IMG/VR virus record: IMGVR_UViG_3300020045_006097
Span: 1-33,716 of that record
From: a virus
Taxonomy: Duplodnaviria > Caudoviricetes
Strand: one strand, 5' to 3'
DNA length: 33,716 nucleotides
Shown: one piece after another, positions 1-33,716 of the stretch
Position numbering within the stretch: position 1 is the stretch's first letter
Layout of the letters: each line of letters begins with the position of its first letter
Notes under the pieces: model-generated
Seen by the model: the letters and a program-made list of their open reading frames with translations, nothing else
What the model was told of the DNA's origin: nothing
Database searches by the model: none
Made by a program: the position numbers and the translations under genes

Positions 1-121
1 TCTCTGCGGTTTTTAGTTGGGATATGTTTAGGTTTCATAATTGTGAGTGATGTATTCTGCAGGAAATCTGCTTATTGTAGTAATCAGTACTACGGAGGAC
101 GTCATATTGGAACTGTAACTT
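1..121. repeat. Terminal direct repeat, left copy (121 bp); probably assembly circularisation overlap
   Basis: 1-121 is identical to 33596-33716. The TGA stop of ORF 35..496 overlaps the ATG (36-38 = 33631-33633) of ORF 33439..33633 across the junction. Confidence 0.97.
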
Positions 122-496
122 TGCTTCAGTGTAAGTGCAATCAGCCTTGGACATACAATATTGCAGAATTTCCCTGGTGAATTGATCAGTTCCATATTCA
201 CTAACATCCTTCAGTAAATCTTGTGATGAGCCGTAATATGTTTGCCAATCAGATTCAATTGTTGATTTGATTTTCTGTTTGCGTTTCTTGCCGTTTTTAA
301 GCGTGATAGTCTTATACTTCGTCTTTGCAAATCTGGCGAGCTTCTTACCAATGTACTTCTTCTTGGTTGGTGTGTGAGTGATAAGGTAGACAAATCCCGC
401 ACAATCAGGTAATGACGTGACGGGATTTCCTTGATATGTCCAGTTATTCAAGTGGAATTCCAAATGGGTTACTTGCACTTCCAGCTTGCGTTGCAT
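35..496 (-). CDS. GIY-YIG family endonuclease of the type common in T4-like phages; true start may be TTG at 451
   Basis: Motifs GFVYLIT...KKYIGKK, ESDWQTYYGSS, FTREIL, catalytic-type E in TYTEAKLQF, and YYN near the C-terminus. Confidence 0.85.
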   Translation of the reverse strand: MQRKLEVQVTHLEFHLNNWTYQGNPVTSLPDCAGFVYLITHTPTKKKYIGKKLARFAKTKYKTITLKNGKKRKQKIKSTIESDWQTYYGSSQDLLKDVSEYGTDQFTREILQYCMSKADCTYTEAKLQFQYDVLRSTDYYNKQISCRIHHSQL

Positions 497-773
497 CTAG
501 TTTTGCTTCATCTAGTGCACGTTTTGCCATTTGTTGATCTAGTACATCTAATTGCGGCTTCAAATCAGCAATAGTTTGCTCTAGTTTTTTAATGCGAAGC
601 ACCAAGCGGTAACGTATGTTTTTCAAGTCATTGCGATTTGCAGCTGAGTACTCACGTTGGTACTTGCGGTAATCTTCCCTGTACTTCTGCTGGTAGTTCA
701 AGCACTTACGGCGGTTGCGCTCACGTGCGATCTCTTCCTTAGTAAATTGAGGCTTAGGTTGCTTAGTTGCCAT
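444..773 (-). CDS. Basic-region/leucine-zipper-like coiled-coil protein (hypothetical)
   Basis: Basic RERNRRKC, then YRKYQREY, then five leucines spaced 7 apart (LKNIRYRLVLRIKKLEQTIADLKPQLDVL); GGAG SD-like site upstream. Confidence 0.7.
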   Translation of the reverse strand: MATKQPKPQFTKEEIARERNRRKCLNYQQKYREDYRKYQREYSAANRNDLKNIRYRLVLRIKKLEQTIADLKPQLDVLDQQMAKRALDEAKLDATQAGSASNPFGIPLE

Positions 774-1110
774 GAGTTACTCCATTACGTGGTGTGTAGT
801 GCAAATCACCAGATTCAATCTTTTCTGCATTAAGTGCAATCTGAGTAGTTAACTGAGCTGATTCATTTTGATAAGGAGCAAGCATTGAGTCGTACTTCAG
901 TTGGATGCGAGCCATAATGAGTTGTACTTCATCAAACCTACGTTGCAATCTAGTTGCTACCTTACGTGGGTCCTGCTCGTACTTGCGGTGATATTCCCGC
1001 TGATATTCCTGGTACTTCTCCTTGTTCTCAGCTTGCCACTTACGTGCACCTACCTTGCGCTTTTCCTGAGGTGTGAGTCCAATTAGGTCTGGGTTTAATT
1101 TATTAGCCAT
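763..1110 (-). CDS. Coiled-coil hypothetical protein, likely paralog of 444..773
   Basis: Shares E-x-Y-x-x-YQREY, a basic N-terminus and a 3-4 hydrophobic heptad pattern; first gene after the CATAAATA at 1138-1145. Confidence 0.7.
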   Translation of the reverse strand: MANKLNPDLIGLTPQEKRKVGARKWQAENKEKYQEYQREYHRKYEQDPRKVATRLQRRFDEVQLIMARIQLKYDSMLAPYQNESAQLTTQIALNAEKIESGDLHYTPRNGVTHGN

Positions 1111-1137
1111 ATTATGTGATAGTGATGTGAGCAGATG

Positions 1138-1145
1138 TATTTATG
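1138..1145 (-). promoter_or_regulatory. T4-like late promoter motif CATAAATA
   Basis: 27 nt upstream of the ATG at 1110; one of 11 boundary or intergenic copies. Confidence 0.6.
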
Positions 1146-1379
1146 CAAGATCCCATTTAGTTGTCTTGCTCAGTTAAGGTAATTTTATGGAATAGCTAGA
1201 TGGAGTGATAGAAATGCAGCTTATGAACGAAGTGAATTGCTGCATTTTATTGCTTTGGATAAGCGCAGCTGTGAAATGTAGGTATTACTTGATTAAATGG
1301 AATTTGATTTGCGGGATATGCACATTTCGTTTTGCAATCAAGTGGAGTACATCTGGCTGCGCAATCTGGCTGGTGCATT

Positions 1380-1820
1380 TCAATTGATATTCGTGCCTCA
1401 TATCAATTTCATTTACCAACCATCTTATTGCTACTTCGTATCAATTAAGTGAAAGCAGAAGTGAATTACAATCCAACACGATCCCCCCTAACGACCACTG
1501 AGGACAGGCCGGGCATCGTTGCCAGTTGATAAAGATAAAAGGTGATTTAAATTTGATTGATTTTTGTAGTTAAGATCAGTATGAATACTGCTACATCAGA
1601 AAGGTCCGTTGTTCAAAACACCTCCTGGGGACAGGTAGGCCACGGTTGCAAACTGAGCTTACAGGATTGATTGATTAGCTTTACGATCTCATTCACAAGA
1701 TCCATGCAAGAGTATTCTTCTTTAACATGCCGTCCTATTTCATACGGTTACTTAATCATCACCTGATGGCTGCCTCACCGCTAATGAAGTCGCAGGCCAC
1801 TTGAATGTTTTGATTGTCTA
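1380..1820 (-). ncRNA. Candidate large structured ncRNA (3' end uncertain, possibly to about 1150)
   Basis: No credible ORF in 1111-1898; CATAAATA at 1825-1832 directly upstream; successive hairpins, several with G-U pairs that work only on the minus strand. Confidence 0.45.
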
Positions 1821-1824
1821 CATC

Positions 1825-1832
1825 TATTTATG
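1825..1832 (-). promoter_or_regulatory. T4-like late promoter motif CATAAATA
   Basis: Intergenic; points into the long non-coding region. Confidence 0.55.
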
Positions 1833-1898
1833 CTTGAACTAAATACTTTATTAGGTCACCCTGATTGTATTTTACTATCGGTGTTTTTGACGTGATAG

Positions 1899-2799: not shown

Positions 2800-3130
2800 A
2801 TTTGTACAGCTTAACAACGCTGAAACTGATTGCAACCGCACTGAAATATCCAATGACAAAACTGCCAATACCGCATGTTAAAGTCAGTAAGGCAGTCATT
2901 AGTGCAACTAGATCGGTATAAGATGTTGATGAAAGTGCCCGAGTCAAACTGAGGTGTTGATGTTCAGCTTGGTCTCGGGAATTTCTTTCACAACGAAAAA
3001 GGCGACTTGCGTGAAGTGGTGAACATAGCGGTGCACGGTTCTCTGACAGTTCATAGTGTTTGTCGCTCTCTTTTAAATATCTACGTTTTAGATATTGGGC
3101 AAAAGAGGTGACGTTAGGAGATGGTAGCAT
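2780..3130 (-). CDS. Hypothetical membrane protein
   Basis: GAGGGG SD-like site before the ATG at 3130; long hydrophobic C-terminus LVALMTALLTLTCGIGSFVIGYFSAVAISFSVV. Confidence 0.45.
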   Translation of the reverse strand: MLPSPNVTSFAQYLKRRYLKESDKHYELSENRAPLCSPLHASRLFRCERNSRDQAEHQHLSLTRALSSTSYTDLVALMTALLTLTCGIGSFVIGYFSAVAISFSVVKLYKYARRAS

Positions 3131-3590
3131 TTTTATCCCCCTCATATGAAAATTCAGAAATCAGTTCAGTAGCAGTTGGGTTAAGCAGTGAGTCAACATA
3201 TTTGCTGACTTCTTTTGGTGCATCTGGATTCTTAAGGAAGAATTTGTAAGCAAGACGGATCTGTTTGTCACTTAGTTCAACCGCTACTCTCCAAACCCAA
3301 CGATTGAATATACGACCATTTGCTTTTACTTCTTTTAGCTCTGGTACGCGGTGTGCAAAGATAAAGTAGTAATGATCTTGTTGGATGTCACGGTAGCAAT
3401 GAGATACTGCATTCTTGTCCTGACTCCATGAGTGATCAGATGGTTGAAACCTATTTTGGATGTGCTCAAACTTGAACACTCGCTCCATCTCATCTGTACG
3501 TGCATTCAATTCATCATAAACGGAATTGATCCGGATGAATAAAAGCATAAAATCTGCTTTTGCGATCTTTGGTTTTGTTGGAGTAGTCAT
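3114..3590 (-). CDS. Hypothetical protein (start MTTPTK at 3590)
   Basis: TAATG coupling with the stop of 3590..3790; globular-looking 158 aa. Confidence 0.65.
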   Translation of the reverse strand: MTTPTKPKIAKADFMLLFIRINSVYDELNARTDEMERVFKFEHIQNRFQPSDHSWSQDKNAVSHCYRDIQQDHYYFIFAHRVPELKEVKANGRIFNRWVWRVAVELSDKQIRLAYKFFLKNPDAPKEVSKYVDSLLNPTATELISEFSYEGDKNATIS

Positions 3591-3791: not shown

Positions 3792-4100
3792 TTAGTGGTC
3801 TTTCAACATTGTAAGCAAAGAAGGACGGCCAAAGTGCTTGAATAGTACCTTAGTGAATGCATCATCATCATCTTGGGAGGGGTTGGATTGGCTGGAGACT
3901 TGGTGAAGTGTCATGTTGGATGTGTTACCAACCATACAAGCTGGTACGATATTCCAGCCAGAGCGGAGACGGTTGCGAAGTGTGACGTGGTGAATACCAA
4001 ATACTTCGCCTAGTTCGGTTACTGTCATCACATATCCAGCAACTTCATACCAAATTGCGGGTGCTTTACCGTGCTTACCGAGTTCATTCATCTTGATCAT
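3792..4100 (-). CDS. Small helix-turn-helix DNA-binding protein, like the C-terminal module of phage homing endonucleases
   Basis: TVTELGEVFGIHHVTLRNRLRSGW pattern; AGGA SD upstream. Confidence 0.65.
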   Translation of the reverse strand: MIKMNELGKHGKAPAIWYEVAGYVMTVTELGEVFGIHHVTLRNRLRSGWNIVPACMVGNTSNMTLHQVSSQSNPSQDDDDAFTKVLFKHFGRPSLLTMLKDH

Positions 4101-4182: not shown

Positions 4183-4356
4183 TTAGGTTTTATTTTCAAT
4201 CTTTAGCCATTTTCCCAGCGGACATTGAAGCCCACGGATCATGGTTTTAAGGTAAACAACGCAACCGCATTGGTTACAGAGCCCAACTGGGTTCTTTTCT
4301 GGACAGGCAGCGCAGATTGCTCTACGCTCTTCTACGAAAGTTGGATGTTCAGCCAT
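4183..4356 (-). CDS. Small Cys-rich (probably Zn-binding) protein, DUF6171-like; 57 aa, missing from the ORF track
   Basis: Translated by hand: MAEHPTFVEERRAICAACPEKNPVGLCNQCGCVVYLKTMIRGLQCPLGKWLKIENKT; TAATG-coupled to 4356..4598. Confidence 0.8.
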   Translation of the reverse strand: MAEHPTFVEERRAICAACPEKNPVGLCNQCGCVVYLKTMIRGLQCPLGKWLKIENKT

Positions 4357-4598
4357 TATGCTGCATTACTCCAAATCGTCGTAGGGGTGACCTGAGTAAG
4401 CACTACGAGTTTAGATGTTGCCGTATTGAAAAATGTAGAACCAAGCGGTACTCCTGCTTCAGATGGATTAGCAGCAAGACGACCAAGGAAGCGAGGAATA
4501 CGGTTGGAAAGCTCCTGCATGTTCTGATTGATGGTAGATTCTTTACTTTTCTGGCCGATTTCAAGTAAAGTTAGATTCCAGTTTGTAGTTTGTGTCAT
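4356..4598 (-). CDS. Small virion-associated protein, DUF2793-like N-terminus
   Basis: MTQTTNWNLTLLEIGQKSKESTINQNMQEL resembles the T-x-N-L-x-L...Q-x-x-K-x-x-T-x-N pattern found next to GTA-like tail genes. Confidence 0.55.
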   Translation of the reverse strand: MTQTTNWNLTLLEIGQKSKESTINQNMQELSNRIPRFLGRLAANPSEAGVPLGSTFFNTATSKLVVLTQVTPTTIWSNAA

Positions 4599-4601
4599 AG
4601 T

Positions 4602-5009
4602 TTATCCGTTAATGATGTTAATTGTTACTTGCTCACCTTGGTCTAAAGCACCTTGGATAAGATTATATACTTTGTCAAAAGCTACCTTTGACTGGCCGAT
4701 TGATTGTTCATCGCCTGCAACTGTATTGCCAGGTAAGATACAGCCTTCGGTATTATCAGCAGTATTACCTGGGTGAATACGAACACCTTGGTAGTCTGGC
4801 ACATTAACTAGCAGCGGAAGATCACGTTGGAAGTGAGGCGAATACGTAATCACTACTTGGTAAGTGCCAGCTGGGATTGCAGTACGTCCAAATATCTTGG
4901 TATCACGAGTGACATCTTCAAGAGTAAACGCTACGAATACTCCATCTGCAGTTAGCTTGCCAATTGTTGCAGTTCCCTTAGAAGGGGAACGAGTGAGAGT
5001 TAGTTTCAT
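4602..5009 (-). CDS. Putative endolysin/peptidoglycan peptidase, DUF5675-like
   Basis: TIGKL..DG, TLED, TAIPAGTY, and GVRIHPGNTADNTEGCILPG (His/Cys motif of the L,D-peptidase-like fold). Confidence 0.75.
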   Translation of the reverse strand: MKLTLTRSPSKGTATIGKLTADGVFVAFTLEDVTRDTKIFGRTAIPAGTYQVVITYSPHFQRDLPLLVNVPDYQGVRIHPGNTADNTEGCILPGNTVAGDEQSIGQSKVAFDKVYNLIQGALDQGEQVTINIING

Positions 5010-7477
5010 AGTATAGCGGGATATCCGCCTCCGATTAGAGTTGACATTTGTGTGACACTACCGCTAATATCTGCTTGTACTGAACCAAAGTCAGTTACTT
5101 GCATTGCTGCTGTGTAAGTGAATGTAGAATCTGTAGTTGTTCCCTTGCGCTTGATAGTAGCTCCAGATAGGATTGCGTATCCGTATCCAGCCCAATCTGC
5201 ATCATGTCCAATCTCAGTATAATCACGAAGATCGTTATTTGCACGTGGGCGCTCAATCCAAGTAAGAATCCAATCGTTATTTGCTTGACGAACCTTGGTT
5301 AACAAGGCGGGAGCAAACGGGCGAAGATTTAGTCCATACGGTTGAATATCAACTGCCGTAACCTTGCTGATGTCTGAGCCAATAGTGACTGTCTTACTCT
5401 TTACAGTCTTTCCTAGATCAGCAAGAGTTAATGGAATATCAACAAGTGCAGAATCAAGGACTACGAATAGTTCATTGACTACGTGTGTGCCACAGTTCAC
5501 TTCAGATCCAGCACGTCCACGAAGCAAGCGTGACAGTGTGTAAGTGTTGGTTCCGGTCAGCGTTGCATTTGCGAATCCAATCACTTCTTGACCAATCATG
5601 CACCAGTTTTCACCATTTTGCACAGCGATATCAGATTTGCTGATTAGCGAACCTTGCTTTAACTGAACAGAAATAGTAGTCGTAGTATCCCAGATATGGT
5701 AGTTACTAGGTGCAGGAACTGTTGCGCTAACGATGCCAAAAGTAGCAAGGGCGCTTCCTGAAGCAAGGATAGAGTAGCTACTACCCCCATCCACACTCCG
5801 GTACACGTCAGCACCAGGCCAACCAGCACGAGCATAACCATGAATAAGCGCTTTAATACGGGGTGTTGCTGCGTCGGAGTCATTTAGTGGAGGTACTTCC
5901 AAGAATAAGCATTGTGAATAACCAATTGTAGTAACGACTTGTGTTGGCTGCTCAGGAGGAACTGCTGCACCTTGACCTGATGCAACGTACGAATATGCAT
6001 TGTAGTCAGAGCGAGTAGTTGTGAATTCAAGCAAGCCATCACTGGTCTCGTTGATTTCAATGATCCGCACTTGAGTGGATCCACCTGAATCAAGTGGAAT
6101 AGTGATTACGTCAGCTGGTTCTAAGTCTACGTTGTGGTAGTCAGTTGTGAATACGTACTGCTGTTGCTCAATATGTGAATTGATAAGGACAGTTTCTGTA
6201 ATTGTTTTCGCTTGCGCATCGGTGAGAGTAAACGGCACGTCAATTGAGCTATCCTGACCAGCAGTGAAGGTTTCAAGAGTTGAAGTCTGAGTGAACACAT
6301 TCTGATCAATTGCTTCGCTGTAATACTTTAGAGTTACGCTGCGTGGAAGGTCAATACCTTGAATACGCTTTGCAGCATATTTTGTTCCAGCATTTGCACC
6401 ATCAGCTTGCATGTGACCTAAGTCATCAGTTGTAAGCGAACGCACAGTAGATTGGTACTTCGGAATGAACTTAACTACTGCACCACTTGATACGATATCA
6501 AATTGGTATGCAAGAGCGAGCTGATTGAGAACAGTACGGATATTGATAGTGCCAGCAATTGTGAAGTTGAGCGGAGTAGACGGAAGCAGTGATACATCAA
6601 TCATAGTTGAATTGAATCCACCATATTCCATTAGTGAACTAACAACAACTGGCAATGTAGTAGCTGGCAAAGTGCCTGCATAAGCTGGGGAACCAGTGTA
6701 GCGTGAGTCAGCCTGACCATCTCCACCGCCATCACCTATGATTGCATCTACAATTGCTGAACCAGCCCAGATTACACCTGCACCAATTGCAAGCGCACCA
6801 AGCCAATCACCAACTGTAGCTGTCTTCATCCAGTCAAATACGTTGTCCTTGAGTTGATCAAAGAAGCTTTGGTCTGCAGGATTACTGAATCCACCACCAG
6901 CTGAGAATAGTTCCCAATCTGTCTCCCAAGTGATACCAAAACCAGGTTCGTTATTATCGTTAGATGTAGTTGCAGTCTTGCTGATGTACATGTTACCATC
7001 AAAGCCACGCACTACGTCATTGGTGTAGTAGAAGTATGCATCTGTCCAATCACCTGACCAACGCAAGCGACGTACTTCACCAAATACTTCCCAGTTAGAT
7101 TCCCAGTCAAGACCAATCCCTGGTTCATTATTTGTGTCTGCTGTATGAGGAACGATACAAACATATACTACATCTTTGTACTTAACAATAGACGTAGTTA
7201 CAGGAGTACCACTTTCAAAGAAGTACTCTGTTCCAGTAGTCCATGCACCAAGATACTTGAGACCTGATCCAGACGCACCTGCTGGGCCAGCGGGACCTGC
7301 GGGACCAGGAGATGGGCAGCAAACTGTAACTGTAGTTACACCGCCATTTGGAGGAATGATAGTTGTAGTGCTACCCTCGCAATACTCGTACTTGAGCGCT
7401 GGAGAGAGTAGAGGGGTTGGAGTAGGCGCTGCAAACGTCCCCTTCGTTCGTGCTGGGGGGATTGGACAAATACTCAT
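5006..7477 (-). CDS. Central tail-tip/host-specificity protein, C-terminal part (RcGTA g15-like phage-tail domain) with N-terminal carbohydrate-binding-like repeats
   Basis: DLPRSVTLKYY, DLEPADVI, GWPGADVYRS, GQEVIGFANA..GTNTYTLSRLLRGRAGSE; two W..GxxY...VxY/F...YxS/C...EPG...W repeats and a short GPA collagen linker at the N-terminus. Confidence 0.85.
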   Translation of the reverse strand: MSICPIPPARTKGTFAAPTPTPLLSPALKYEYCEGSTTTIIPPNGGVTTVTVCCPSPGPAGPAGPAGASGSGLKYLGAWTTGTEYFFESGTPVTTSIVKYKDVVYVCIVPHTADTNNEPGIGLDWESNWEVFGEVRRLRWSGDWTDAYFYYTNDVVRGFDGNMYISKTATTSNDNNEPGFGITWETDWELFSAGGGFSNPADQSFFDQLKDNVFDWMKTATVGDWLGALAIGAGVIWAGSAIVDAIIGDGGGDGQADSRYTGSPAYAGTLPATTLPVVVSSLMEYGGFNSTMIDVSLLPSTPLNFTIAGTINIRTVLNQLALAYQFDIVSSGAVVKFIPKYQSTVRSLTTDDLGHMQADGANAGTKYAAKRIQGIDLPRSVTLKYYSEAIDQNVFTQTSTLETFTAGQDSSIDVPFTLTDAQAKTITETVLINSHIEQQQYVFTTDYHNVDLEPADVITIPLDSGGSTQVRIIEINETSDGLLEFTTTRSDYNAYSYVASGQGAAVPPEQPTQVVTTIGYSQCLFLEVPPLNDSDAATPRIKALIHGYARAGWPGADVYRSVDGGSSYSILASGSALATFGIVSATVPAPSNYHIWDTTTTISVQLKQGSLISKSDIAVQNGENWCMIGQEVIGFANATLTGTNTYTLSRLLRGRAGSEVNCGTHVVNELFVVLDSALVDIPLTLADLGKTVKSKTVTIGSDISKVTAVDIQPYGLNLRPFAPALLTKVRQANNDWILTWIERPRANNDLRDYTEIGHDADWAGYGYAILSGATIKRKGTTTDSTFTYTAAMQVTDFGSVQADISGSVTQMSTLIGGGYPAIL

Positions 7478-7480
7478 TAA

Positions 7481-8587
7481 TTAGCCTCCGTAATAACCCT
7501 GGGCACCAATAGCAATCATGCCGGTTCCTAGGATCTGTGAACTATTTACACCTTTCAGAGCTGTTGCACGGTATGCAATAACTCCAGTTGCGGTGCGAAT
7601 GAACAAATGAGGTCTCACTGTAATTGAACTTGTTGTATCCGTAATTGGATCGTACTTGTCGTAAGTTACTTGATTAGTTAATACTGCAACTGCCCGAATA
7701 GAGTCATCAGTTTGGGCACCGGTAACACCAGCAGCTACTACACCAACTGTAGACTTGATCATCCGGTATGTTGGCTGTCCGCCACCTACTAGCCATATGA
7801 ATCCTGTCCGAAGATCATCAAGATACGTAGTATGACCTAAGTTTGCACTGAATGTAGTTGGCGTATTTGCTGCTTGATCCCACTTGATTACTGATACATC
7901 ACAGCCAACAAATAGCTCTTTATTCTGATTAACGCTTAGTGTAGCTGGAGATCTGCTAATCTTGTACGTTTGTAGGAATGAGTTAGTTGCGAGATCAAAG
8001 TCAGCAATGCTGTGGTTATTCTTGCATGTAACCCAAAGACTTCCGTCTAATCCATTAATCAGCATTCGTTGATCTGTTTGATGACGCAACGGAATAGCAA
8101 AGACTGACCAAGTGCTTGCAGTAAGATCATATTTTAGTAGCGTATTCTGCATATTTGCATTAGTTGCAGCATTAGCAATCCACAGTGCACCATTCGCAGC
8201 TACTAGATCTGATCCCTTGGTGAATCCAGCTGGAAAATCAAAAGCACCTACTTGAGCCTTTGTATGAATATTATAGCCAACGATATTAGGTGAGGTAGTG
8301 TATAAGACGTACATGATATCACCCAACTTAGTAGCATTTTGCATACCAGTGCGGACGTCACCAAATAGCTGACTTGTTAGACGAACTGTTTGGTTGTCAA
8401 AGTAGTATGCTTGATCAAGCGTATAATCTAGATTTAGTGAAGAGAGAGCTGATATTTTACCGTCGTTCCAACCAACCCATACTTCAACTTCATTCGCTTT
8501 TACAATGAATGTAGGAGTGGCAGAAGAGACAGGTGGGCTGACTGCATCGCGTTTAAACTCATAGATTGTTTCAAATTCTAAGCTCAT
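7481..8587 (-). CDS. Putative beta-propeller virion protein
   Basis: Repeating blades such as NGALWIAN, DGSLWVTC, KELFVGC and GFIWLVG; lies in the tail module. Confidence 0.6.
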   Translation of the reverse strand: MSLEFETIYEFKRDAVSPPVSSATPTFIVKANEVEVWVGWNDGKISALSSLNLDYTLDQAYYFDNQTVRLTSQLFGDVRTGMQNATKLGDIMYVLYTTSPNIVGYNIHTKAQVGAFDFPAGFTKGSDLVAANGALWIANAATNANMQNTLLKYDLTASTWSVFAIPLRHQTDQRMLINGLDGSLWVTCKNNHSIADFDLATNSFLQTYKISRSPATLSVNQNKELFVGCDVSVIKWDQAANTPTTFSANLGHTTYLDDLRTGFIWLVGGGQPTYRMIKSTVGVVAAGVTGAQTDDSIRAVAVLTNQVTYDKYDPITDTTSSITVRPHLFIRTATGVIAYRATALKGVNSSQILGTGMIAIGAQGYYGG

Positions 8588-10394: not shown

Positions 10395-10402
10395 TTAAAT
10401 CC

Positions 10403-12520: not shown

Positions 12521-12523
12521 ATT

Positions 12524-24937: not shown

Positions 24938-25188
24938 TATTGTCTTTCGTATGTTGAGCGCTTAGCAGATTGAATCAACTGATTCATCTTCAAAGCAAAT
25001 GCGCCTGGCTCTACTAAACCGTTGCCGTTGTTAAAATCGTTAATGTGCATACGCGGAACGAATTCAAAGTGAAACACTCCGCGGTTATTAACACTCTCAA
25101 TTGTCTTGATTTGACAAGACTTAACACTCAGATACGCAGCAAGTGGGACGTGAGCAGTTTGGTATTCGGTTAGTAGATCAGTATTCAT
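24937..25188 (-). CDS. Small protein, DUF5659-like
   Basis: YQTAHVPLAAYL...GVFHFE pattern. Confidence 0.55.
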   Translation of the reverse strand: MNTDLLTEYQTAHVPLAAYLSVKSCQIKTIESVNNRGVFHFEFVPRMHINDFNNGNGLVEPGAFALKMNQLIQSAKRSTYERQ

Positions 25189-25197: not shown

Positions 25198-25752
25198 TTA
25201 CGCGGTAAATTTAAGTGGTTGCCCAGCTAGCCATCCGTTTTCGCCAAGTGCGCGAAGCAAGTCTTGTACTGTAGTTGGAAGACGGTCAGCTTTGATTCCG
25301 TCCTTGATAGCAAGATCAAGTGGACCAACTTTGTAGTTGCTTAGTGTTTCCAAGTCATTATCATCAACAGTGAATTCTCCACCTACTCGCTTGAGCAAAT
25401 AGAGAGCCATTTCACATGTAGCTTGTTTGATCTCATTTGGGATCGTATTTGGATCACGGTAGTAATAGCCAAGTGTTTCAAATGTAGCAACTGGGGATGT
25501 GCGTGTGTCACGAGTAAGAACGTAGCTGCGTGGGAACTGCAACTTCTGTACGATTCGGTTAGTCAGCTGACCACCAAACTTCTCGCGATCAATCCGGTTT
25601 GTTGCTTGCACGAGAGCAGCTTGTTTCTTTGCAGCAGAAATACTCCAGAATGAGCTCTCAAGGTGAGCTGCGAAGTAATCATCAGCCTCTGCAACAGAAA
25701 TATAGCTATTCGCTGTGCTGCTACCTGCAGTAGCGTCATATGCAAATGTCAT
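25198..25752 (-). CDS. Head-tail adaptor (family often annotated 'DnaT-like ssDNA-binding')
   Basis: ANSYISVAEADDYF, AALVQATNRID, QKLQFPR, IPNEIKQATCEMA; first gene after the capsid gene. Confidence 0.8.
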   Translation of the reverse strand: MTFAYDATAGSSTANSYISVAEADDYFAAHLESSFWSISAAKKQAALVQATNRIDREKFGGQLTNRIVQKLQFPRSYVLTRDTRTSPVATFETLGYYYRDPNTIPNEIKQATCEMALYLLKRVGGEFTVDDNDLETLSNYKVGPLDLAIKDGIKADRLPTTVQDLLRALGENGWLAGQPLKFTA

Positions 25753-25773
25753 GTGTATTCCTTTATATTGAGA

Positions 25774-25781
25774 TATTTATG
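25774..25781 (-). promoter_or_regulatory. T4-like late promoter motif CATAAATA
   Basis: Between the capsid terminator and the AAGGA SD of the adaptor gene. Confidence 0.65.
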
Positions 25782-25800
25782 GAACTACACATTGCACAAG

Positions 25801-25834
25801 ACAAAAGAAAAGCCCCCGTGGCAAAACGGGGGCT
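25801..25834 (-). terminator. Intrinsic terminator after the major capsid gene
   Basis: 9-bp stem AGCCCCCGT/ACGGGGGCT followed by TTTCTTTTGT. Confidence 0.85.
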
Positions 25835-25885
25835 GATCGCTCTCTTAACTTCTAAAGGATGCCGGCATTGCACCGGCAATTACTG

Positions 25886-26830
25886 TTATACAGTAACTTT
25901 GTTCAAGGCTGCAACGGATAGAACGCTGTGGATAGCGAACGAACCGTACATCTTGACGCGCCAGATGTCGTAGTCACCAGCTTCGGCAGGACCGACGCCT
26001 TGAACTTGAACACCACCAACGCTTGGGATGATACCAGACAAACCACCAGTACGTGTGCCGTCGTCAAACGAACCAGCGTAGATGGAAACTTGAGTGCCTG
26101 CAGTAGCAGATGTATCAGCAGTCAAGAAGTCGTTACGGATAATTGGGATACCGTTGTATTGTGGAACTTGTACGCCAGCAACGTCCATGTAAGTTACGCC
26201 ACCGGATGCACGTAGCAACGATAGGATCTTACGAACGCCAGCAGAGTGAGCCATAATGAATTGTGGGTCACCTTGTAGAATGCGGTGTAGCATTGCATCT
26301 AGCAATTCAAATGTTAGGCCAGCGTCAGCACCAGCGATAACTTGACCAGCGAATGGCGAGCTAGCTAGCAATACTTCTAGACCGTCAAATTCCTGGGTGT
26401 TTGTCACGCCAGAAACAGAGTTACCAGGAGTAGTTGCATTACCAACAGCGATCTGGCGGAAGTATTCACGACCAACTTGCTTAGCCTTGGATGCAATTGC
26501 AGCAGCCACTGGATCTGCACCAGCGCCTGTGCCAACACCTTGAGCAACGATCAAGCTGTTAACTTCAGCATCACCGATGATGGAAGTTAGTGGTAGGGTA
26601 ACTTGGGCAAAGGTTGCCTGAGTTTTCACACCGGAAGTAGAACCACCGATGGCTAGGGAAGCTACGTTACCAGGAGTACCTTCGCGGTTGAACGCGTAAG
26701 CATTACCTTGCACAACGTTGAAAGGCAGAACGCCTAGCAAGCCGTTTGCAGTAGCAATAGTTTCAGCAACGCCAGCAGAAAGGTCATCATAACCAAGTTT
26801 GCTTGCTTCAGATAGTAGGATTGTTGACAT
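25886..26830 (-). CDS. Major capsid protein (HK97 fold)
   Basis: LLGVLPF..VQGNAYAFNRE, IIGDAEV, EFDGL, YNGIPIIRND, WRVKMY; GGAG SD; followed by a terminator. Confidence 0.9.
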   Translation of the reverse strand: MSTILLSEASKLGYDDLSAGVAETIATANGLLGVLPFNVVQGNAYAFNREGTPGNVASLAIGGSTSGVKTQATFAQVTLPLTSIIGDAEVNSLIVAQGVGTGAGADPVAAAIASKAKQVGREYFRQIAVGNATTPGNSVSGVTNTQEFDGLEVLLASSPFAGQVIAGADAGLTFELLDAMLHRILQGDPQFIMAHSAGVRKILSLLRASGGVTYMDVAGVQVPQYNGIPIIRNDFLTADTSATAGTQVSIYAGSFDDGTRTGGLSGIIPSVGGVQVQGVGPAEAGDYDIWRVKMYGSFAIHSVLSVAALNKVTV

Positions 26831-26864
26831 GTTTAATATTCTCCAAATTGAAAGGACTTACCTT

Positions 26865-27506
26865 TTATTTATTACGACTCGCCAGACCAGCGCTAATCTT
26901 GTCACTTGCGGACTTAGATTGCTGAACATTTGAGCCTTTCGTCGGCTTAAAGGATCCAGACCCTCTGGATTGTGCAAACAAATGTCCGGCAGTTTCGGTC
27001 AGTGATGTAATCCAGGAATTGACTGTGTAAGTCTTACCTGTTTTATCTACAGACTTGTCCTTTGGAACTGCAGTGCCGTTTTCAACGACAAACATTTCCT
27101 TAGCTCGTGCCAATACATCTGGCAGCGCACTTGGTAGTACCCCGTACTCCGTTGCTGCTGTTTTCACTGAGTCAGACAATACTACTCGTTCCAAATTCGT
27201 GGTCAAAGAGGTTGTCTGTGCAGTTAGATTCGTGATTTGAGACTCGTAATTCGTCTTCATCTCTGAGACGCGACCCTCAACAAGCTTTTCAATATCGCCA
27301 GCACCTGGTGCTGTCTTGGTGATATCTTCAACTTGCTTCTTTAGTGCAATATTATTTGTGCGGAACTCCGACACCTTTGTTTCAAGTGCAGTGACTTGTG
27401 CGAGTGGCACAGCTCCAGCTACTTGAAGAATCCATTTACCGCCAGTTTCAGTATAGAAGTTGGCAATTTCAGCTGCAGGTGCAGTCGTAAGTTCGTAATC
27501 TAGCAT
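26865..27506 (-). CDS. Capsid scaffolding protein (start MLDYEL at 27506)
   Basis: Coiled coil, EFRTNNIAL, HLFAQSRGSG, C-terminal DKISAGL; GGGGA SD; directly upstream of the capsid gene. Confidence 0.85.
   Translation of the reverse strand: MLDYELTTAPAAEIANFYTETGGKWILQVAGAVPLAQVTALETKVSEFRTNNIALKKQVEDITKTAPGAGDIEKLVEGRVSEMKTNYESQITNLTAQTTSLTTNLERVVLSDSVKTAATEYGVLPSALPDVLARAKEMFVVENGTAVPKDKSVDKTGKTYTVNSWITSLTETAGHLFAQSRGSGSFKPTKGSNVQQSKSASDKISAGLASRNK
26866..26873 (-). promoter_or_regulatory. T4-like late promoter motif AATAAATA
   Basis: Overlaps the last codons of the scaffold gene, 35 nt before the capsid ATG. Confidence 0.5.
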
Positions 27507-27575
27507 TGTTTGATCCCCGATCAAGTGTGTGAGACACCGTCCCACGTGACCGCACAAATAGTTGCGTGTCAGGTC

Positions 27576-27655: not shown

Positions 27656-28165
27656 ATGAACAAACAATCTATCATCTCTCTGCTCAGCAACGTCAAGGGT
27701 GTTACATTTGCTAACATTGAATACGAAACTGTTGTTGCCACTGCTGCTGCCTTTAAGACTGTACGTGTCACCAAACGCGTGGTTGCGAATGTCCAGCTGT
27801 TCAACAACCTGAAAGCATTCACGAACGTCTACCGCAATGCAGTGGAACGCTCTTCTGGTAAGCCATTTGAAGTGAGCGAATCGTACTTTGAGCACACTGA
27901 ATGCTTCTCCGTTGTCAAGCACAAAACCAAAAGCGCTTACTACCTGTACTGCATCTACAACAACGTTCAGTCTACTGAATATCTGATTGACGGTGTACCA
28001 GCTACGAAACAAGCTGTAACAGCAATGATGACGCCCAGTGCAGCTGCCGCCGCCAATTCGGAAAAGACACACAATGTTCGCAACAATGTGGACCATGATG
28101 TCGTCATTCGCACAATTGGTTTGGATTCGTTGACCAAGATCACTGCATGTGGAGCACAAATCTGA
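27656..28165 (+). CDS. Hypothetical protein; the only credible plus-strand gene (moron-like, early)
   Basis: 169 aa with its own promoter and terminators, between the portal and scaffold genes. Confidence 0.8.
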   Translation: MNKQSIISLLSNVKGVTFANIEYETVVATAAAFKTVRVTKRVVANVQLFNNLKAFTNVYRNAVERSSGKPFEVSESYFEHTECFSVVKHKTKSAYYLYCIYNNVQSTEYLIDGVPATKQAVTAMMTPSAAAAANSEKTHNVRNNVDHDVVIRTIGLDSLTKITACGAQI

Positions 28166-28297: not shown

Positions 28298-28320
28298 GGG
28301 CCCGTGAGGGCCCTTTTTGT
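28298..28320. terminator. Second, possibly bidirectional terminator at the portal stop
   Basis: AGGGCCC-GTGA-GGGCCCT followed by TTTTGT on the plus strand. Confidence 0.75.
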
Positions 28321-29630
28321 TAGTCTATTTCAATCTCAGTGCTGATTGGAGCAGGTCCCTCTTGCTGACTTGCCAAGACACCAGGCTGATTCAAGTCTGA
28401 TTCATCCACAATCTCACCTTCGTACAGCCGCTTAAGCATTGTCTCTAGCGTAATCGCACCAGCTGCATACAATTGTAGCAACGAAGTGATTGTCTGTGGG
28501 GACATCTGAGCTGGACTGAAGTCTGAATTCAAATCTACAACTGGGATCGCATTAGATGAAAACCACGTGTTGTAATCAGTCAAGGCGTGAGTCAATCCAG
28601 CATTCAATGCATTGCGTAGTGTCATAAGGGATGCACCTTCTGCACCCAGACGAATCTGCAATGCATCACTAGATTCAACACCAGCTTTATACTGAAGTAG
28701 TCTGCTACCAAGTGAATACATCTGTGCTTCCTTCTGATTCGCTAAGTCAAGAACGAATGAAGATCCAGTGCCACTGAATTCCATGTACTGAGCGCTACCA
28801 CCAGACTTCAAGTGAATGAACTTGTCACCACCAAGACCAATTGTAGTCTCATCACCCTGCAAATCGCCAACGATTGTAGGAGTAGGGGAAGCAAGTACCC
28901 AAGCAATGTGAGCGAGACCAGCCTGCAATACAAAGTGTTCAATATTGATCTGTGCCAAAGTGAAGAGAGGTGGCTTGCAAATGTCATCGCTGCAATCTTG
29001 TGGATTAACAAATGTGAATGGAATCTTAGTCAGGTAAGCACCACGAACCATTGGCTGAATAGTTTCAGTAATCTCCCACTGATCCTTCTTCACTTGTTCC
29101 CAGATGTTAACCGTATACACGCCAGCTTCATCTAGTGTAAGTTCACGGTAACGAGTGGTCTCAACCTGAACGTACTTGTCATTCTTATCCGGTGCGTAAT
29201 AGCATTCTTCAATCACAACGAAGTCTTCACTCCAATTGATAATGGAAGTGCCACAATAAGTGACCAAGTAAGGCTGATTGTTCTCTTCATCAAAGTCAAC
29301 CAAGATACCAAGGCGCCCCTCAGTTAACAATGTGACGTATGCTTCCTGTACAAACTCTTCGAAGTTATCACCGTCATCCATGTTTGGAATTACTCCAGCA
29401 ACATTCTCAAGACGTGCAGGCTTCCGCGTCAATGCACCAACCAATGCAGACGTTGTACGTTCAACTACATTATAGAACGATGGACGTTTAATGAACTTCT
29501 GATATTGTTGAGGAGTCTGACTCTCCTTCTTAGGGATATATTCAGCAACATCACCTTCGTACGCATCAGTGACCAAATCAACTGCTTCTTCATACTCATC
29601 AAACTCTGGGTGCTTACTATTAATTGGCAT
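28320..29630 (-). CDS. Portal protein (DUF4055-like)
   Basis: MPINSKHPEF, YNVVERT..ALVG, GRLGILVD, SIINW, KPPL..LAQINIEH, YMEFSG, LYAAGAIT..T..KRLYEGEI. Confidence 0.9.
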   Translation of the reverse strand: MPINSKHPEFDEYEEAVDLVTDAYEGDVAEYIPKKESQTPQQYQKFIKRPSFYNVVERTTSALVGALTRKPARLENVAGVIPNMDDGDNFEEFVQEAYVTLLTEGRLGILVDFDEENNQPYLVTYCGTSIINWSEDFVVIEECYYAPDKNDKYVQVETTRYRELTLDEAGVYTVNIWEQVKKDQWEITETIQPMVRGAYLTKIPFTFVNPQDCSDDICKPPLFTLAQINIEHFVLQAGLAHIAWVLASPTPTIVGDLQGDETTIGLGGDKFIHLKSGGSAQYMEFSGTGSSFVLDLANQKEAQMYSLGSRLLQYKAGVESSDALQIRLGAEGASLMTLRNALNAGLTHALTDYNTWFSSNAIPVVDLNSDFSPAQMSPQTITSLLQLYAAGAITLETMLKRLYEGEIVDESDLNQPGVLASQQEGPAPISTEIEID

Positions 29631-29651: not shown

Positions 29652-29659
29652 TATTTATC
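29652..29659 (-). promoter_or_regulatory. Late promoter motif GATAAATA
   Basis: Overlaps the terL TGA, 21 nt before the portal ATG. Confidence 0.5.
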
Positions 29660-31010
29660 AATAGAGACCAGCCATACGCAATGTGCCAGCTTGGTAGCGT
29701 TTGATCGGGTACTTCTGCCAGATGAAATAGCCACCAGCATCATTAGCATGGTCCCAACCATCTTGCTTATCAGGCTGACCATAATCATCATACACTTGCT
29801 GCTCTAATGATTGAGTATACTGAGGACAAGTGCGAGTGTTAATCTTATACTTACGCTCACCATCCTTAGTACAGAACAGTTGATTCATTGAGTTGATACG
29901 GTCACGCACAGGTGGGTTCTTATTGTCGTACACTACAGCGAACTTAGCTGCCTTGAGCATAATAATGTCAGTCTCAGCAAACACAGATGCGTGTGATCTA
30001 TTCTTACCAGATGAGTCAGGGTAGACAGTGATGTTAATGAAGTCGTGATACTTCTCCTTGATCACTTCAATCATGTGCTCGGTGTCACGCAACCCAATCA
30101 GCTCATCAATCGCATGCGGACCAGATGGAGTGATCACATGCACAATTGCAGCCATCTTATCAATGTTAAAGTCCATACCAATGTGCAGTGTAGGCATCAA
30201 CGGGTTAGCATGTGGTCTAGTTGGATCAATGCGAGCAGCCCACTCCTTGCGCAACTGCTCAATAGTGATAGTGGTGTCATTAAGGTAGCGATCATACTTT
30301 CTGTAGATGCGACCTGATGTCATATTGACGAACTCACCATTGACCCATGCTTGCTGTTCCTCTTCACTGAAGTTGGCAATATTGTCAGAGATGTACTCAT
30401 CAGGTAGAGTAGTATTGTCCCTAGATGAAGCACTGATCACTCTTGTCATCAACGCAAGCTCAGGCTTCTGTGCAGGTGCTACTACGAACTGCTGATATGT
30501 GAACTTGTGACCTTCTGGAGTAGTAGTGACGAATGTCTGACGGATGGCACCATTAGCTCGGCATCTCGCGTTGGTTGCTTTCCACATCGCCTTCTGGATG
30601 TCACTCTTCATAGTATCCATCTCATCAATCCCTACGAATGCAGCATTGATACCAATCATGCGGCTGTAGTTCTCCGCTGACCTCATCTTCAATGTGCATG
30701 TACCGGTCTTGAACTTGATCACAAACTCAGGTGTGCCCCCAGACTTAGTCAGCTTATATGAACCAATGCCAAGCAACTCTAATGCTTCCTCCATGGATGG
30801 GATCAACACGTCAGCAATCAGTGGGTAGGTAGGCTCACACAAGATGCCCACATGGTCCCCAATCAATGCAGCATTGGCTGAGGCAAGATGAATTGCTTTC
30901 ATGCAGAATGCGAATGACTTGCCCGCACCAAAGCCAGCCTTCAGTAAGATGTAGCGTGAGGTAACATCAGTGACGAACTCATACTGATGCTTAAATAGTT
31001 TAACTGCCAT
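29658..31010 (-). CDS. terL: Terminase large subunit (start MAVKLF at 31010)
   Basis: Q motif LFKHQ, Walker A GFGAGKS, Walker B VGIDE, TTTPEG, nuclease motifs GMDFN and DHANDA; GGAG SD. Confidence 0.95.
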   Translation of the reverse strand: MAVKLFKHQYEFVTDVTSRYILLKAGFGAGKSFAFCMKAIHLASANAALIGDHVGILCEPTYPLIADVLIPSMEEALELLGIGSYKLTKSGGTPEFVIKFKTGTCTLKMRSAENYSRMIGINAAFVGIDEMDTMKSDIQKAMWKATNARCRANGAIRQTFVTTTPEGHKFTYQQFVVAPAQKPELALMTRVISASSRDNTTLPDEYISDNIANFSEEEQQAWVNGEFVNMTSGRIYRKYDRYLNDTTITIEQLRKEWAARIDPTRPHANPLMPTLHIGMDFNIDKMAAIVHVITPSGPHAIDELIGLRDTEHMIEVIKEKYHDFINITVYPDSSGKNRSHASVFAETDIIMLKAAKFAVVYDNKNPPVRDRINSMNQLFCTKDGERKYKINTRTCPQYTQSLEQQVYDDYGQPDKQDGWDHANDAGGYFIWQKYPIKRYQAGTLRMAGLY

Positions 31011-31500
31011 TATGGTTAACTCCGTATACGACTTGTGCAGCAGCACAGTATGCCGCGTGCGCTTCTTCTGCTGTGGGAAATGATCCTAGATGTTTATGCT
31101 GGAAGCGAGCAACATAACGCTCACAATTGACTCGCTTGTTAAGGTAGATCCCAGTGAAGCCTGTAGTGTTAAGAGGAGTCATCTCCCTGTTGTACATGTT
31201 GAGACCAGAGGATGCCGCCCGCAGATTAGAGATATCATTATTGGTATGATCTCTATCAATATGGTCAACTATCAGTGGGAGTGATCTGTGGTTGAGAAGG
31301 TAGACAATCCGGTGCAGACCCATCTGCTGGGGGAAGCCTTCCACCTCAATGCTGATAGTTCTGTAACCTTTCTTGCTAGCAGAGACGGTAGTGTGGTTGC
31401 TATTGCGGTGTAGGTGTCCCCCACTGTAGTAGTACCGCTTGCTGCAGTATTCATATAAACTATCAACCTGATCTTGTGTGTAATGTCTGCCTGTTGCCAT
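31000..31500 (-). CDS. HNH endonuclease with C-terminal AP2-like domain
   Basis: LHRIVY...VDHIDRDHTNNDISNLR...N; GFTGI...YVARF...HLGSFPTAEEAHAAY. Confidence 0.9.
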   Translation of the reverse strand: MATGRHYTQDQVDSLYEYCSKRYYYSGGHLHRNSNHTTVSASKKGYRTISIEVEGFPQQMGLHRIVYLLNHRSLPLIVDHIDRDHTNNDISNLRAASSGLNMYNREMTPLNTTGFTGIYLNKRVNCERYVARFQHKHLGSFPTAEEAHAAYCAAAQVVYGVNHNGS

Positions 31501-31526: not shown

Positions 31527-31555
31527 ATCATACTTCTATTTATGTTTAATGTCAA
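31527..31555 (-). promoter_or_regulatory. Sigma70-type promoter with a CATAAATA late motif (31537-31544) nested in its spacer
   Basis: TTGACA-17 nt-TATGAT; TAAGGA SD and ATG at 31500 downstream. Confidence 0.8.
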
Positions 31556-31898: not shown

Positions 31899-32099
31899 TC
31901 ATGCGGACGTAGAGTAAAGTTTGATGATGTCTGAGCTGCGGGTGTACATTACTCCAGTAGATGTACTGATCTGATACCAACCACCATGTGCATCAGGTAG
32001 CACTCCAATGATACTACCTATCATCTCAGTCACGCCTCCCCCCACGCACGCGCAGCGCACTTGCTTAAATAACACTTGGTCTGATACTTTGTACATCAT
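31899..32099 (-). CDS. Hypothetical protein
   Basis: ATGA-coupled to 32096..32671; small and beta-rich. Confidence 0.55.
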   Translation of the reverse strand: MMYKVSDQVLFKQVRCACVGGGVTEMIGSIIGVLPDAHGGWYQISTSTGVMYTRSSDIIKLYSTSA

Positions 32100-32671
32100 A
32101 CTTTCCCCAGCAGAACTTGAAAGCCATATGCAGCAAGTGCATTCTGCTGCAGTCTTGTGCGTGAGTGATCAGGTAGCTTGCATATATCCCGCAGCGGCTG
32201 GGGGAGTAAATGATAGCTAGCTGCTAGCCCCTGCAGGCCTTGGTACTGACAGACCTTAGTTACGCCGGGGATGCCACTCTCTAGCTCCTTAGTGTAGATC
32301 AGGTAGAGCTTCCCCAGCAGAGCTTCCCCAGCGGGCGGGGTGATAGTTAAAATTGATTCTGCAGCAGGAGTAGAATCAGATGAAGTAGAGCTACATGCAC
32401 CTTTATTATCACTCAGATTGGGAGAAATGTCAACGGATGCTGCGGGGGAGACATCTTTTTTATTTTTATTTTTATTTATTTTGGTGTATTTAGCGCTTTT
32501 AGGCGAATTAGCTGTTGACCTGGCGCGAAAAAAAACCTCTCCAGTTTGATCAGATTTAGTTCCAGCTTTGTTCAGCTCCTGCTTTTCCAACTCTAACTTA
32601 GCTTCTACTTCCTTTTGCACTTCTTCTTGTGTGCGCGGAACATAATCACCATCATCATTCGTCATACTCAT
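32096..32671 (-). CDS. Hypothetical low-complexity protein overlying DNA repeats
   Basis: AGGA SD; follows terS; middle part looks disordered. Confidence 0.5.
   Translation of the reverse strand: MSMTNDDGDYVPRTQEEVQKEVEAKLELEKQELNKAGTKSDQTGEVFFRARSTANSPKSAKYTKINKNKNKKDVSPAASVDISPNLSDNKGACSSTSSDSTPAAESILTITPPAGEALLGKLYLIYTKELESGIPGVTKVCQYQGLQGLAASYHLLPQPLRDICKLPDHSRTRLQQNALAAYGFQVLLGKV
32305..32332. repeat. Perfect 14-bp tandem repeat AGAGCTTCCCCAGC x2
   Basis: Copies at 32305-32318 and 32319-32332; the core TTCCCCAGCAGA recurs at 32103-32114. Confidence 0.85.
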
Positions 32672-32701
32672 ATCATTGATCCTATTCTATTCTATCCAGC
32701 C

Positions 32702-33145
32702 TTAATCCGGCTCAGCTTCCTTAGCAATCAACTCCACCTGCTCAAAACTGATTGATCCAGGCAAATGCTGCTTATCTGCATTATCCACACTTGTCTCTCT
32801 CCATCCGTGCTTACGTGCCAGCAAAAACGCAATATCTTTCCGCTTTCTTTCATACGGCACCTCTGGGTCTCTCACAAAGTCCGCAATCTGCTTATACAGT
32901 CCCCATTCCACATCTTTCTTTGCAGTACGCAGGGCTTCAGATAAAGCTGGGTATTTAGCTTTTGCTTCTATGAAGAGTTGAGTGCTTACGCGGAGCACAC
33001 CTGCAATGGCTGCTTCTGTGAAATCAATTGCCGCCATCATCTTTGCAGCATCAATCTCCTTTACACTTGGTACCCACTCCTTTGCCCCGTTCTTCTCCTT
33101 TGGTAGTTCCTTTAAGTCTCTTACTGTAATCTTCTTTGTAGCCAT
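32702..33145 (-). CDS. terS: Terminase small subunit
   Basis: HTH IAGVLRVSTQLF, YPALSEAL...K..VE..LY, IAFLLARKHGWRE; TAAGGAG SD; upstream of terL. Confidence 0.75.
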   Translation of the reverse strand: MATKKITVRDLKELPKEKNGAKEWVPSVKEIDAAKMMAAIDFTEAAIAGVLRVSTQLFIEAKAKYPALSEALRTAKKDVEWGLYKQIADFVRDPEVPYERKRKDIAFLLARKHGWRETSVDNADKQHLPGSISFEQVELIAKEAEPD

Positions 33146-33170
33146 ATAACTGATTCTCCTTATACTTCTA

Positions 33171-33178
33171 TATTTAGA
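33171..33178 (-). promoter_or_regulatory. Late promoter variant TCTAAATA
   Basis: 25 nt before the terS ATG, at the same spacing as the ATAAATA copies. Confidence 0.45.
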
Positions 33179-33263
33179 TCTCTATGGGGCATAAAATGAT
33201 GTATGGATAGAAAAGTAGGTATTACTGAGCCAAGGGGAAATTCAAACCGGGTATGTTCACATT

Positions 33264-33437
33264 TCAAACCGGAAATGGTTGTGCTTCAATTCGTTCCAGT
33301 GCAATGATAAGCAAGCGAGTCTCATACTGATCCATCTGTTTGTAATCCTGATCAGTTCCTAGTCCTGCATCAATCTTTACAGCGATTGCTTTAACAGCTG
33401 CATTGATTGCGTAAATTTCTTCTCTATGTGGTAACAT
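33264..33437 (-). CDS. Hypothetical helical protein, 57 aa, missing from the ORF track
   Basis: Translated by hand: MLPHREEIYAINAAVKAIAVKIDAGLGTDQDYKQMDQYETRLLIIALERIEAQPFPV; GAGGA SD. Confidence 0.65.
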   Translation of the reverse strand: MLPHREEIYAINAAVKAIAVKIDAGLGTDQDYKQMDQYETRLLIIALERIEAQPFPV

Positions 33438-33438
33438 A

Positions 33439-33633
33439 TTATTCCTCTAGTTGATAACGCTTGACTTGGTTAGTTGCTATTAAGTGATCAAGATACTCCA
33501 TTAGCAGATGATCTATTTCATCCTTACTAAGGAAGTCTTTTCTTGGACATCCGTCCTCCACCATATACTCTGCGTAAGCAAATTTGTTAAGTAGCTCTCT
33601 GCGGTTTTTAGTTGGGATATGTTTAGGTTTCAT
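33439..33633 (-). CDS. Hypothetical protein
   Basis: ATGA-coupled to the GIY-YIG gene across the circular junction. Confidence 0.65.
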   Translation of the reverse strand: MKPKHIPTKNRRELLNKFAYAEYMVEDGCPRKDFLSKDEIDHLLMEYLDHLIATNQVKRYQLEE

Positions 33634-33716
33634 AATTGTGAGTGATGTATTCTGCAGGAAATCTGCTTATTGTAGTAATCAGTACTACGGAGGACGTCAT
33701 ATTGGAACTGTAACTT
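33596..33716. repeat. Terminal direct repeat, right copy
   Basis: Identical to 1-121. Confidence 0.97.

Follow-up and report, generated by a model that had tools for sequence, protein, structure and literature searches.

A complete 33.6-kb siphovirus-type genome lacking recognisable replication genes may be a satellite virus keyed to the late sigma factor of a jumbo phage

The described systems closest to the element considered here are the Streptomyces satellites MiniFlayer and MulchRoom, which, as the available portions of PMC10690885 present them, encode their own terminase, portal, scaffold, capsid and adaptor, have no primase or other key replication genes, and carry HNH nucleases, joined in MulchRoom by a GIY-YIG nuclease; in MiniFlayer a lysogeny module is missing and the helper is a large virulent phage. 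On the side of transcription, phage T4 places an AT-rich word consisting of a -10 element only before its virion genes, using gp55, gp33 and gp45 (PMC2988020, in the part available), and the Rak2-like jumbo phage CBB combines a gp55-like gene with a predicted late motif, ATAAATA, before its structural genes, with gp33 and gp45 not detected according to the relevant section of PMC5259590. IMG/VR record IMGVR_UViG_3300020045_006097, a viral stretch of 33,716 nt analysed here in full and called the window below, resembles both: it is a complete siphovirus-type genome of about 33.6 kb with its own head and tail genes, it shares with MiniFlayer and MulchRoom the encapsidation genes, the nuclease types and the missing replication genes just listed, and its gene starts carry a -10-only word like that of T4 in the form predicted for CBB. 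We lean, if only modestly, towards reading it as a helper-dependent satellite virus that uses the late sigma factor and, probably, the replisome of a jumbo phage.

The two ends of the window are the same sequence:

1..121, no strand: terminal repeat, identical to 33596-33716, an assembly overlap

Joining them gives a closed circle of 33,595 nt without N, and the record is classed with direct terminal repeats. Almost every gene is on the minus strand; the genes from the lysis side to terS fill 28,963 nt (4183-33145), the lysis gene assignment being tentative, and outside the virion genes the longest open reading frame (ORF) has 191 aa. When 51 ORFs were compared with PHROGs and Pfam, the siphovirus set proved complete, with terS, terL, portal, scaffold, capsid and adaptor as the element's own encapsidation genes, then the neck, major tail, chaperone, tape measure, distal tail, hub, NlpC/P60 and tail tip, of which major tail, tape measure, distal tail, hub and tail tip make up a long-tail module. 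The same scans, extended with NCBIfam to 146/156 stop-to-stop frames of at least 30 aa in the non-structural regions, gave no match to a polymerase, helicase, primase, initiator, single-stranded DNA-binding protein, recombinase, integrase, repressor or sigma factor; NCBIfam added one GIY-YIG match, below cut-off. The initial annotation had described a circular genome, about 29 of its 33.6 kb given to packaging, virion and lysis genes, with ORFs below about 200 aa elsewhere and no recognisable replication, integration or sigma gene, and each of these descriptions agrees with the values and scans above. A Pfam 'DnaT_2' match at 25198-25752 was considered as a replication gene and rejected, the product being the head-tail adaptor (phrog_477, E 3e-27).

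Three relatives of 30-34 kb repeat the plan, the gene absences and the motif described below, a recurrence that the initial annotation had proposed as a check. G001 (33,844 nt; terL 72% identical to that of the window) is colinear with the window, and its two ends share 6 nt, across which the tape measure gene reads on in frame; G007 (33,107 nt; 50%) has a terminal repeat; and G002 (29,886 nt; 57%) is linear, follows the same plan and adds five tRNA genes. The small ORFs scanned in these relatives (26 from G001 and G002, 12 from G007) gave no sigma factor or replicase above a weak match, a DnaD-like one, to a basic helical ORF of G002 (E 0.004). A Holliday junction resolvase is encoded in all three, at about the place where the window has a GIY-YIG nuclease. 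A further 15-kb fragment, G008 (L083), has the family terL, terS, DUF5659 gene and tail tip but differs in its portal and encodes a NinG/Rap nuclease. A gp55 family search that recovered T4 gp55 itself at E 3e-69 found no member in six frames in any of the five family records (G000, G001, G002, G007 and G008). With the T4 proteins gp43, gp44, gp46/47 and gp55 as queries, the 327-kb jumbo phage genome G009 was matched, and no family ORF was at E < 0.05, so that the gene set typical of the T4 superfamily was not found in the element. The marks of P4, PICI and PLE elements are likewise missing, as neither an integrase nor a replicase was found and there is no close prophage relative: in the bacterial and archaeal genome collection terL matched no close prophage and the capsid matched nine loci at 35-40% identity. 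Among E. coli sequences, terL is matched best by that of an ordinary prophage, which shows no motif bias (6 vs 11).

Because G001 and G007 close independently, a mis-circularised or fragmentary window can be ruled out. We think it very improbable that the record arose through faulty assembly or through a deletion that left the phage defective, or that it represents the structural segment of a multipartite phage. Such a reading would fit the CheckV completeness estimates of 41% for the window and 40% for G001, and the fact that the nearest cultured capsids, among 25 matches listed, belong to phages of Xanthomonas, Stenotrophomonas and Variovorax with 56-65 kb genomes (40-42% identity); the low estimate for the window, however, probably arises because those capsids come from such larger phages, and G007 scores 100%. 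The same gene order is kept by three strongly divergent genomes (terL 50-72% identical to the window) that close at 33.0-33.8 kb, and the 26 homologues of a conserved small gene (32096-32671) all sit on contigs of at most 33,844 nt, a second segment not having been searched for.

The word RTAAATA is distributed in the window as a promoter would be. It occurs 18 times on the coding strand and once on the template strand, and 16 of the 18 copies lie at most 70 nt from a start codon; for ATAAATA alone the counts are 12 and 1, against a mean of 6.3 in shuffled sequences, of which 1 in 100 reached 13. In an unbiased count, TAAATA is the top hexamer in the gene gaps of the four genomes (44/67, 8.2 when shuffled), the preceding base being A in 32 cases, G in 24, C in 5 and T in none. 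Taken together, the four genomes hold 85 coding-strand and 12 template-strand copies of the motif, with no conserved element further upstream, i.e. no -35. Within 100 nt upstream of genes, RTAAATA was found at 15/43, 12/45, 12/38 and 13/44 genes (27-35%), with one antisense case in each genome, whereas 16 control loci, whose terL or capsid is a distant homologue, had it at 12 of 369 genes (3%) and the ten of them at 42-52% GC at 12 of 265; these upstream counts rest on automatic gene calls. The word stands before non-virion genes as well, and before tRNAs in G002. It thus has the marks of a gp55-type promoter in a variant form, namely a -10-only word on the coding strand at gene starts without a -35. 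A T4-like late motif had been proposed initially, and a strand-biased word of late type at gene starts is indeed present; the word is RTAAATA, though, and the strict TATAAATA occurs in the window at chance level (2 copies). An origin in stop codons, TAA followed by ATA at gene junctions, was rejected, since controls with the same bias give only 12/369; two window sites, 1-2 nt from ATG, may nevertheless be of this kind. In G002 the tRNAs Val, Thr, Ala, Asn and Ile (L026:1803-2566) stand downstream of a TATAAATA site. Uncultured loci at the capsid distance of the 56-65 kb phages (L032-L052), which are GC-richer, had no RTAAATA upstream of their genes.

Two accessory genes of the window lead to phages that do encode gp55:

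35..496, minus strand: SegE-type GIY-YIG endonuclease (PF19835, E 3e-32)
27656..28165, plus strand: opposite-strand accessory gene of 169 aa, 48% identical at the protein level to a G009 gene (E 7e-26)

Viral contigs yielded 294 relatives of the nuclease, of which the best 80 are 53-65% identical. Among the neighbours scanned at 9 of these loci were gp46/47-like genes, at 8 of the 9, and baseplate hub genes, and gp55 was present on 18 of the 19 contigs tested among the best 80, which were picked for length (39-327 kb). The plus-strand gene is 68% identical to its G009 counterpart in nucleotides; it has three other relatives, one on a contig that carries gp55 and two on short fragments. G009, itself among the 19 contigs tested, has homologues of gp43, gp44, gp46, gp47 and gp55, its gp55 being nearest (about 45%) to those of E. 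coli, Pseudomonas (PA5oct group) and Sinorhizobium jumbo phages of 285-470 kb. The jumbo genomes use the same word, RTAAATA lying upstream of 77 of 385 genes in G009, 18 of 130 in G011 and 33 of 119 in G012 (antisense 17, 3 and 6). Beyond the two genes and repeat-rich fibre segments, nothing else was found in common between the family and these three jumbo genomes. A T4 gp45 query found no homologue in G009, and phrog_223 matched 0 of 24 records but also no control; gp33 was not searched for.

These results sharpen the link to the T4 superfamily that the initial annotation had drawn: two accessory genes do trace to gp55-encoding phages with the same motif, and a jumbo phage with a long gp55-like sigma factor makes a better helper candidate than a T4-like phage. 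The coupling of late transcription to a gp45 clamp, proposed alongside, could not be established, gp33 and gp45 being undetected in the jumbo group; gp55 alone gives basal transcription (PMC2988020, in the part available), so that the clamp need not be involved.

We infer from sequence that the element probably depends on a helper, which would be a gp55-encoding phage of the T4 superfamily, most likely a jumbo. Upon its own injection, only a few genes with sigma70-type promoters would be read; upon co-infection, the helper's gp55-like sigma factor would direct the host core polymerase to RTAAATA and thereby switch on the virion, lysis and small genes. More speculatively, the helper replisome might then copy the element DNA without an initiator, from an R-loop or by recombination, much as T4 copies plasmids from a promoter plus unwinding element of about 100 bp or by recombination, as the section of PMC3016281 on this subject describes. 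The junction resolvases of the relatives could likewise trim branched DNA for their own terminase, as endonuclease VII resolves branches for packaging in T4 (PMC3016281, same section). A candidate RNA-primed origin is conceivable downstream of a CATAAATA site:

1150..1890, minus strand: non-coding stretch of about 700 nt between two CATAAATA sites (1825 and 1138)

This stretch weakly resembles the non-coding stretches of G002 and G007 in alignment. Rfam gave no match in it, and the RNA of 1150-1825 folds no better than shuffled sequences (z -0.68). G-rich runs followed by GAT occur in the non-coding stretches of the window (1490-1510), G007 (about 4990) and G002 (about 1090), with weak alignment support.

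Several observations weigh against helper dependence. The shared genes, at 48-65% identity, show past exchange, not present dependence; the PA5oct motifs are given as TATAATA and TTGAC, not RTAAATA, in the available text of PMC7318152; and there is neither an integrase nor a prophage relative to explain how the element waits for a helper. Host holoenzyme, moreover, might read part of the operon through three good sigma70-like sites (31555, 31836 and 32433) upstream of the HNH-terL genes, one of which encloses the motif:

31527..31555, minus strand: sigma70-like site, TTGACA-17-TATGAT with ATAAATA inside the spacer

Such sites are overall not above chance (29 vs 31.3 and 28 vs 38.4 in shuffles); given the good ones in the window, and a G001 cluster on the opposite strand that is led by such a site at the locus of the window's plus-strand gene, some host-driven expression is nevertheless likely. 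In G007, TAAATA occupies the same spacer place in a TTGACA-17-TATGAT site (5879-5907), before different genes than in the window, and these two sites are possibly dual promoters for host and helper. The plus-strand gene 27656-28165 has a sigma70-like site at 27621 and a terminator at 28233; neither this gene nor the three sites upstream of HNH-terL figured in the initial annotation. An opposite-strand locus stands between portal and scaffold both in the window (27621-28254, plus strand) and in G001 (10973-12100, plus strand), with different genes in each; TTGACC-17-(G/T)ATAAT leads both, and G001 has the promoter unit twice.

A further reservation concerns small genes of which any could encode an activator or initiator:

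3114..3590, minus strand: conserved 157-aa protein, in all four genomes
3792..4100, minus strand: helix-turn-helix (HTH)-like protein, kin to the C-terminal part of HNH endonucleases (phrog_3377, E 0.0015; phrog_15118, E 0.007)
24937..25188, minus strand: DUF5659 protein (PF18903, E 4e-4), in all four genomes
31899..32099, minus strand: conserved gene of 62-66 aa without assigned function, 37-66% identical to G001, G002 and G007
32096..32671, minus strand: conserved gene without assigned function, of which the C-terminal ~75-110 aa alone are common to the relatives (alignment)

A cryptic initiator is possible because these conserved genes have no assigned function. The 157-aa protein had no family match in PHROGs, Pfam or NCBIfam, and an Atlas search assigned neither it nor the product of 32096-32671. 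The HTH-like gene, kept in all four genomes, heads the run that follows CATAAATA (4149) and a hairpin, and a profile search of the PDB returned nothing significant for its product. DUF5659, encoded twice in G002 and G007, was modelled with confidence (pLDDT 92) as a small alpha/beta protein whose comparison with solved structures gave no significant fold match (best Z 3.5), which does not by itself make it a new fold. The product of 31899-32099 appears SH3-like by eye. In the small-gene region of G007, an opposite-strand gene (L081:3513-4046, plus strand) matches phrog_2267.

It is on such genes that an autonomous life would have to rest. The element could be a lytic siphovirus, one of whose own small proteins steers host RNA polymerase to RTAAATA while host enzymes replicate its DNA from an unrecognised initiator or an RNA-primed origin. 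All five small genes, one of them HTH-like, are present without assigned function in the four genomes, sigma70-like sites could express early genes, and a full tail without an integrase fits a free lytic life. We nevertheless regard this as unlikely: the small proteins match no gp55-family, sigma, activator or initiator model, the HTH-like and 157-aa genes themselves sit after CATAAATA, and both the -10-only word of gp55-encoding jumbo phages and the genes shared with them would be coincidence.

A narrower dependence, in which a large phage supplies gp55 and host enzymes replicate the element through its own unrecognised initiator or origin, draws on a sister clade (portal about 40%) that has the motif and keeps a primase and a DUF5906 helicase, as seen on fragments:

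L050:18-2722 and L218:1543-4129: sister loci with primase and DUF5906 helicase

The clade also weighs against the satellite reading as a whole. RTAAATA lies upstream of 5 of 22 genes in L050 and 8 of 28 in L218, and G032, a 76% fragment, had no gp55 match. It is because this motif-bearing clade keeps primase and helicase that the case for borrowed replication is weaker than that for borrowed transcription, and the clade would mark an intermediate step towards hyperparasitism. Two further sister records stand beside these: the siphovirus L031, of 56% GC, has a different tail tip and eight coding-strand copies of the TAAATA motif against none, and on the fragment L220 a gene at 1955-2440 shares 35% identity with one that G009 has near its DNA polymerase.

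The same narrower dependence could be read from G001, in which a 413-aa ORF (L025:1615-2856 = G001 17615-18856) shows polymerase-like motifs by eye, a further point against borrowed replication, at a position where the window has non-coding DNA. They look family-A-polymerase-like. The ORF matched nothing in the libraries or in PDB sequence searches, and its structural model is unreliable (pLDDT 35.5). We nonetheless find a dependence limited to late transcription rather improbable, as no such gene was found in the window, G002 or G007, tblastn found no remnant of the ORF in the window, and the ORF looks mobile because a homologue (P0002) lies in the unrelated phage G031. A short internal stretch of the ORF recurs inverted just past its end. 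Neither G031 nor G033 clearly displays the family pattern.

The remaining genes of the window are as follows.

444..1110, minus strand: two mutually related basic helical ORFs, with kin among the ORFs of G001 and G007
4183..5009, minus strand: DUF5675 protein, which we take to be the likely endolysin, and two small genes including DUF6171 (Pfam)
5006..17441, minus strand: tape measure, distal tail (DUF2460), hub (BR0599), NlpC/P60, fibre-like repeat proteins and tail tip (Rcc01698-like) (PHROGs, Pfam)
17442..24937, minus strand: collagen-like and repeat proteins, two unassigned ORFs, neck, major tail protein and tail chaperones (phrog_1084, PF01391, PF03382, phrog_26, phrog_807, phrog_1442)
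25198..27557, minus strand: scaffold, major capsid protein and head-tail adaptor (phrog_206, phrog_212, phrog_477)
28320..29630, minus strand: portal (phrog_145), with GATAAATA upstream at 29652-29658
29658..31010, minus strand: terminase large subunit (PF03237, PF17289, phrog_2)
31000..31500, minus strand: HNH endonuclease (phrog_99, E 4e-35; PF13392)
32702..33145, minus strand: terminase small subunit (phrog_309, E 1.7e-5), with homologues in G001, G002 and G007

ATAAATA lies upstream of the scaffold (27576), major capsid (26866) and head-tail adaptor (25774) genes. One of the two unassigned ORFs in 17442-24937 looks membrane-like by eye and is a holin candidate. Rfam and ARAGORN scans of the window found nothing.

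Should the satellite reading be right, genomes that pass for ordinary free siphoviruses can belong to jumbo-phage parasites, marked by a promoter word without a matching sigma gene, which would provide an easy way to search viromes for hidden satellite viruses and a compact natural reporter for the gp55-like sigma factors of jumbo phages in which gp33 and gp45 were not detected. It would also bear on whether large phages attract satellites, posed as an open question in the available part of PMC13359090. Should it be wrong, a small activator and a mode of replication, both so far unrecognised, are present in the clade, and these would be worth finding as well.

Set against known systems, the element may work like MiniFlayer and MulchRoom without being a member of their lineage. 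Those satellites have 20-26 genes and terminal repeats of about 1 kb, unlike the element; MiniFlayer grips its helper by short fibres and MulchRoom is believed to rely on the tails of its helper, whereas the element has a full long-tail module; and their dependence was shown in culture, whereas that of the element is deduced (PMC10690885, in the portions available). That paper nowhere uses the word 'promoter', whereas the element has its gp55-type motif. The 'inverted satellite' of the initial annotation, with its own virion genes and no replication genes, is partly supported but not new in kind, as MiniFlayer and MulchRoom already combine encapsidation genes with the lack of primases (PMC10690885, same portions). 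The current satellite classes listed in the accessible part of PMC12822802 include no such element, and our literature search, in which subscription journals were thinly covered, turned up no description of a phage with a full tail that is keyed to the gp55 of a helper; a self-made long tail combined with helper-sigma wiring would be new. Compared with T4 and CBB, the element has no gp55 of its own, and its word is RTAAATA rather than TATAAATA. The cultured siphoviruses of Xanthomonas, Stenotrophomonas and Variovorax are nearly twice its size.

The late genes of P4 respond to an activator of the helper. P4, PICI, PLE and capsid-forming PICI elements integrate, code for a replicase themselves and obtain capsids or tails from their helper (PMC10690885, in part), whereas the element encodes head and tail, and neither an integrase nor a replicase was found in it. 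Dependence on a helper is common to P4, PICI, PLE, capsid-forming PICI elements and, presumably, the element. Virophages of giant viruses use the late promoters of their helpers. They make their own virion and are predicted to rely on the expression machinery of a larger virus (PMC13359090, in the part available), though their hosts are eukaryotic and their virion and replication genes unrelated, so the likeness is one of analogy only. With slightly less than even confidence, we suggest that the clade of fully tailed, non-integrating phages of about 33 kb could be obligate hyperparasites of gp55-encoding jumbo phages to which both late transcription and DNA replication have been handed over, a bacterial counterpart of the virophages.

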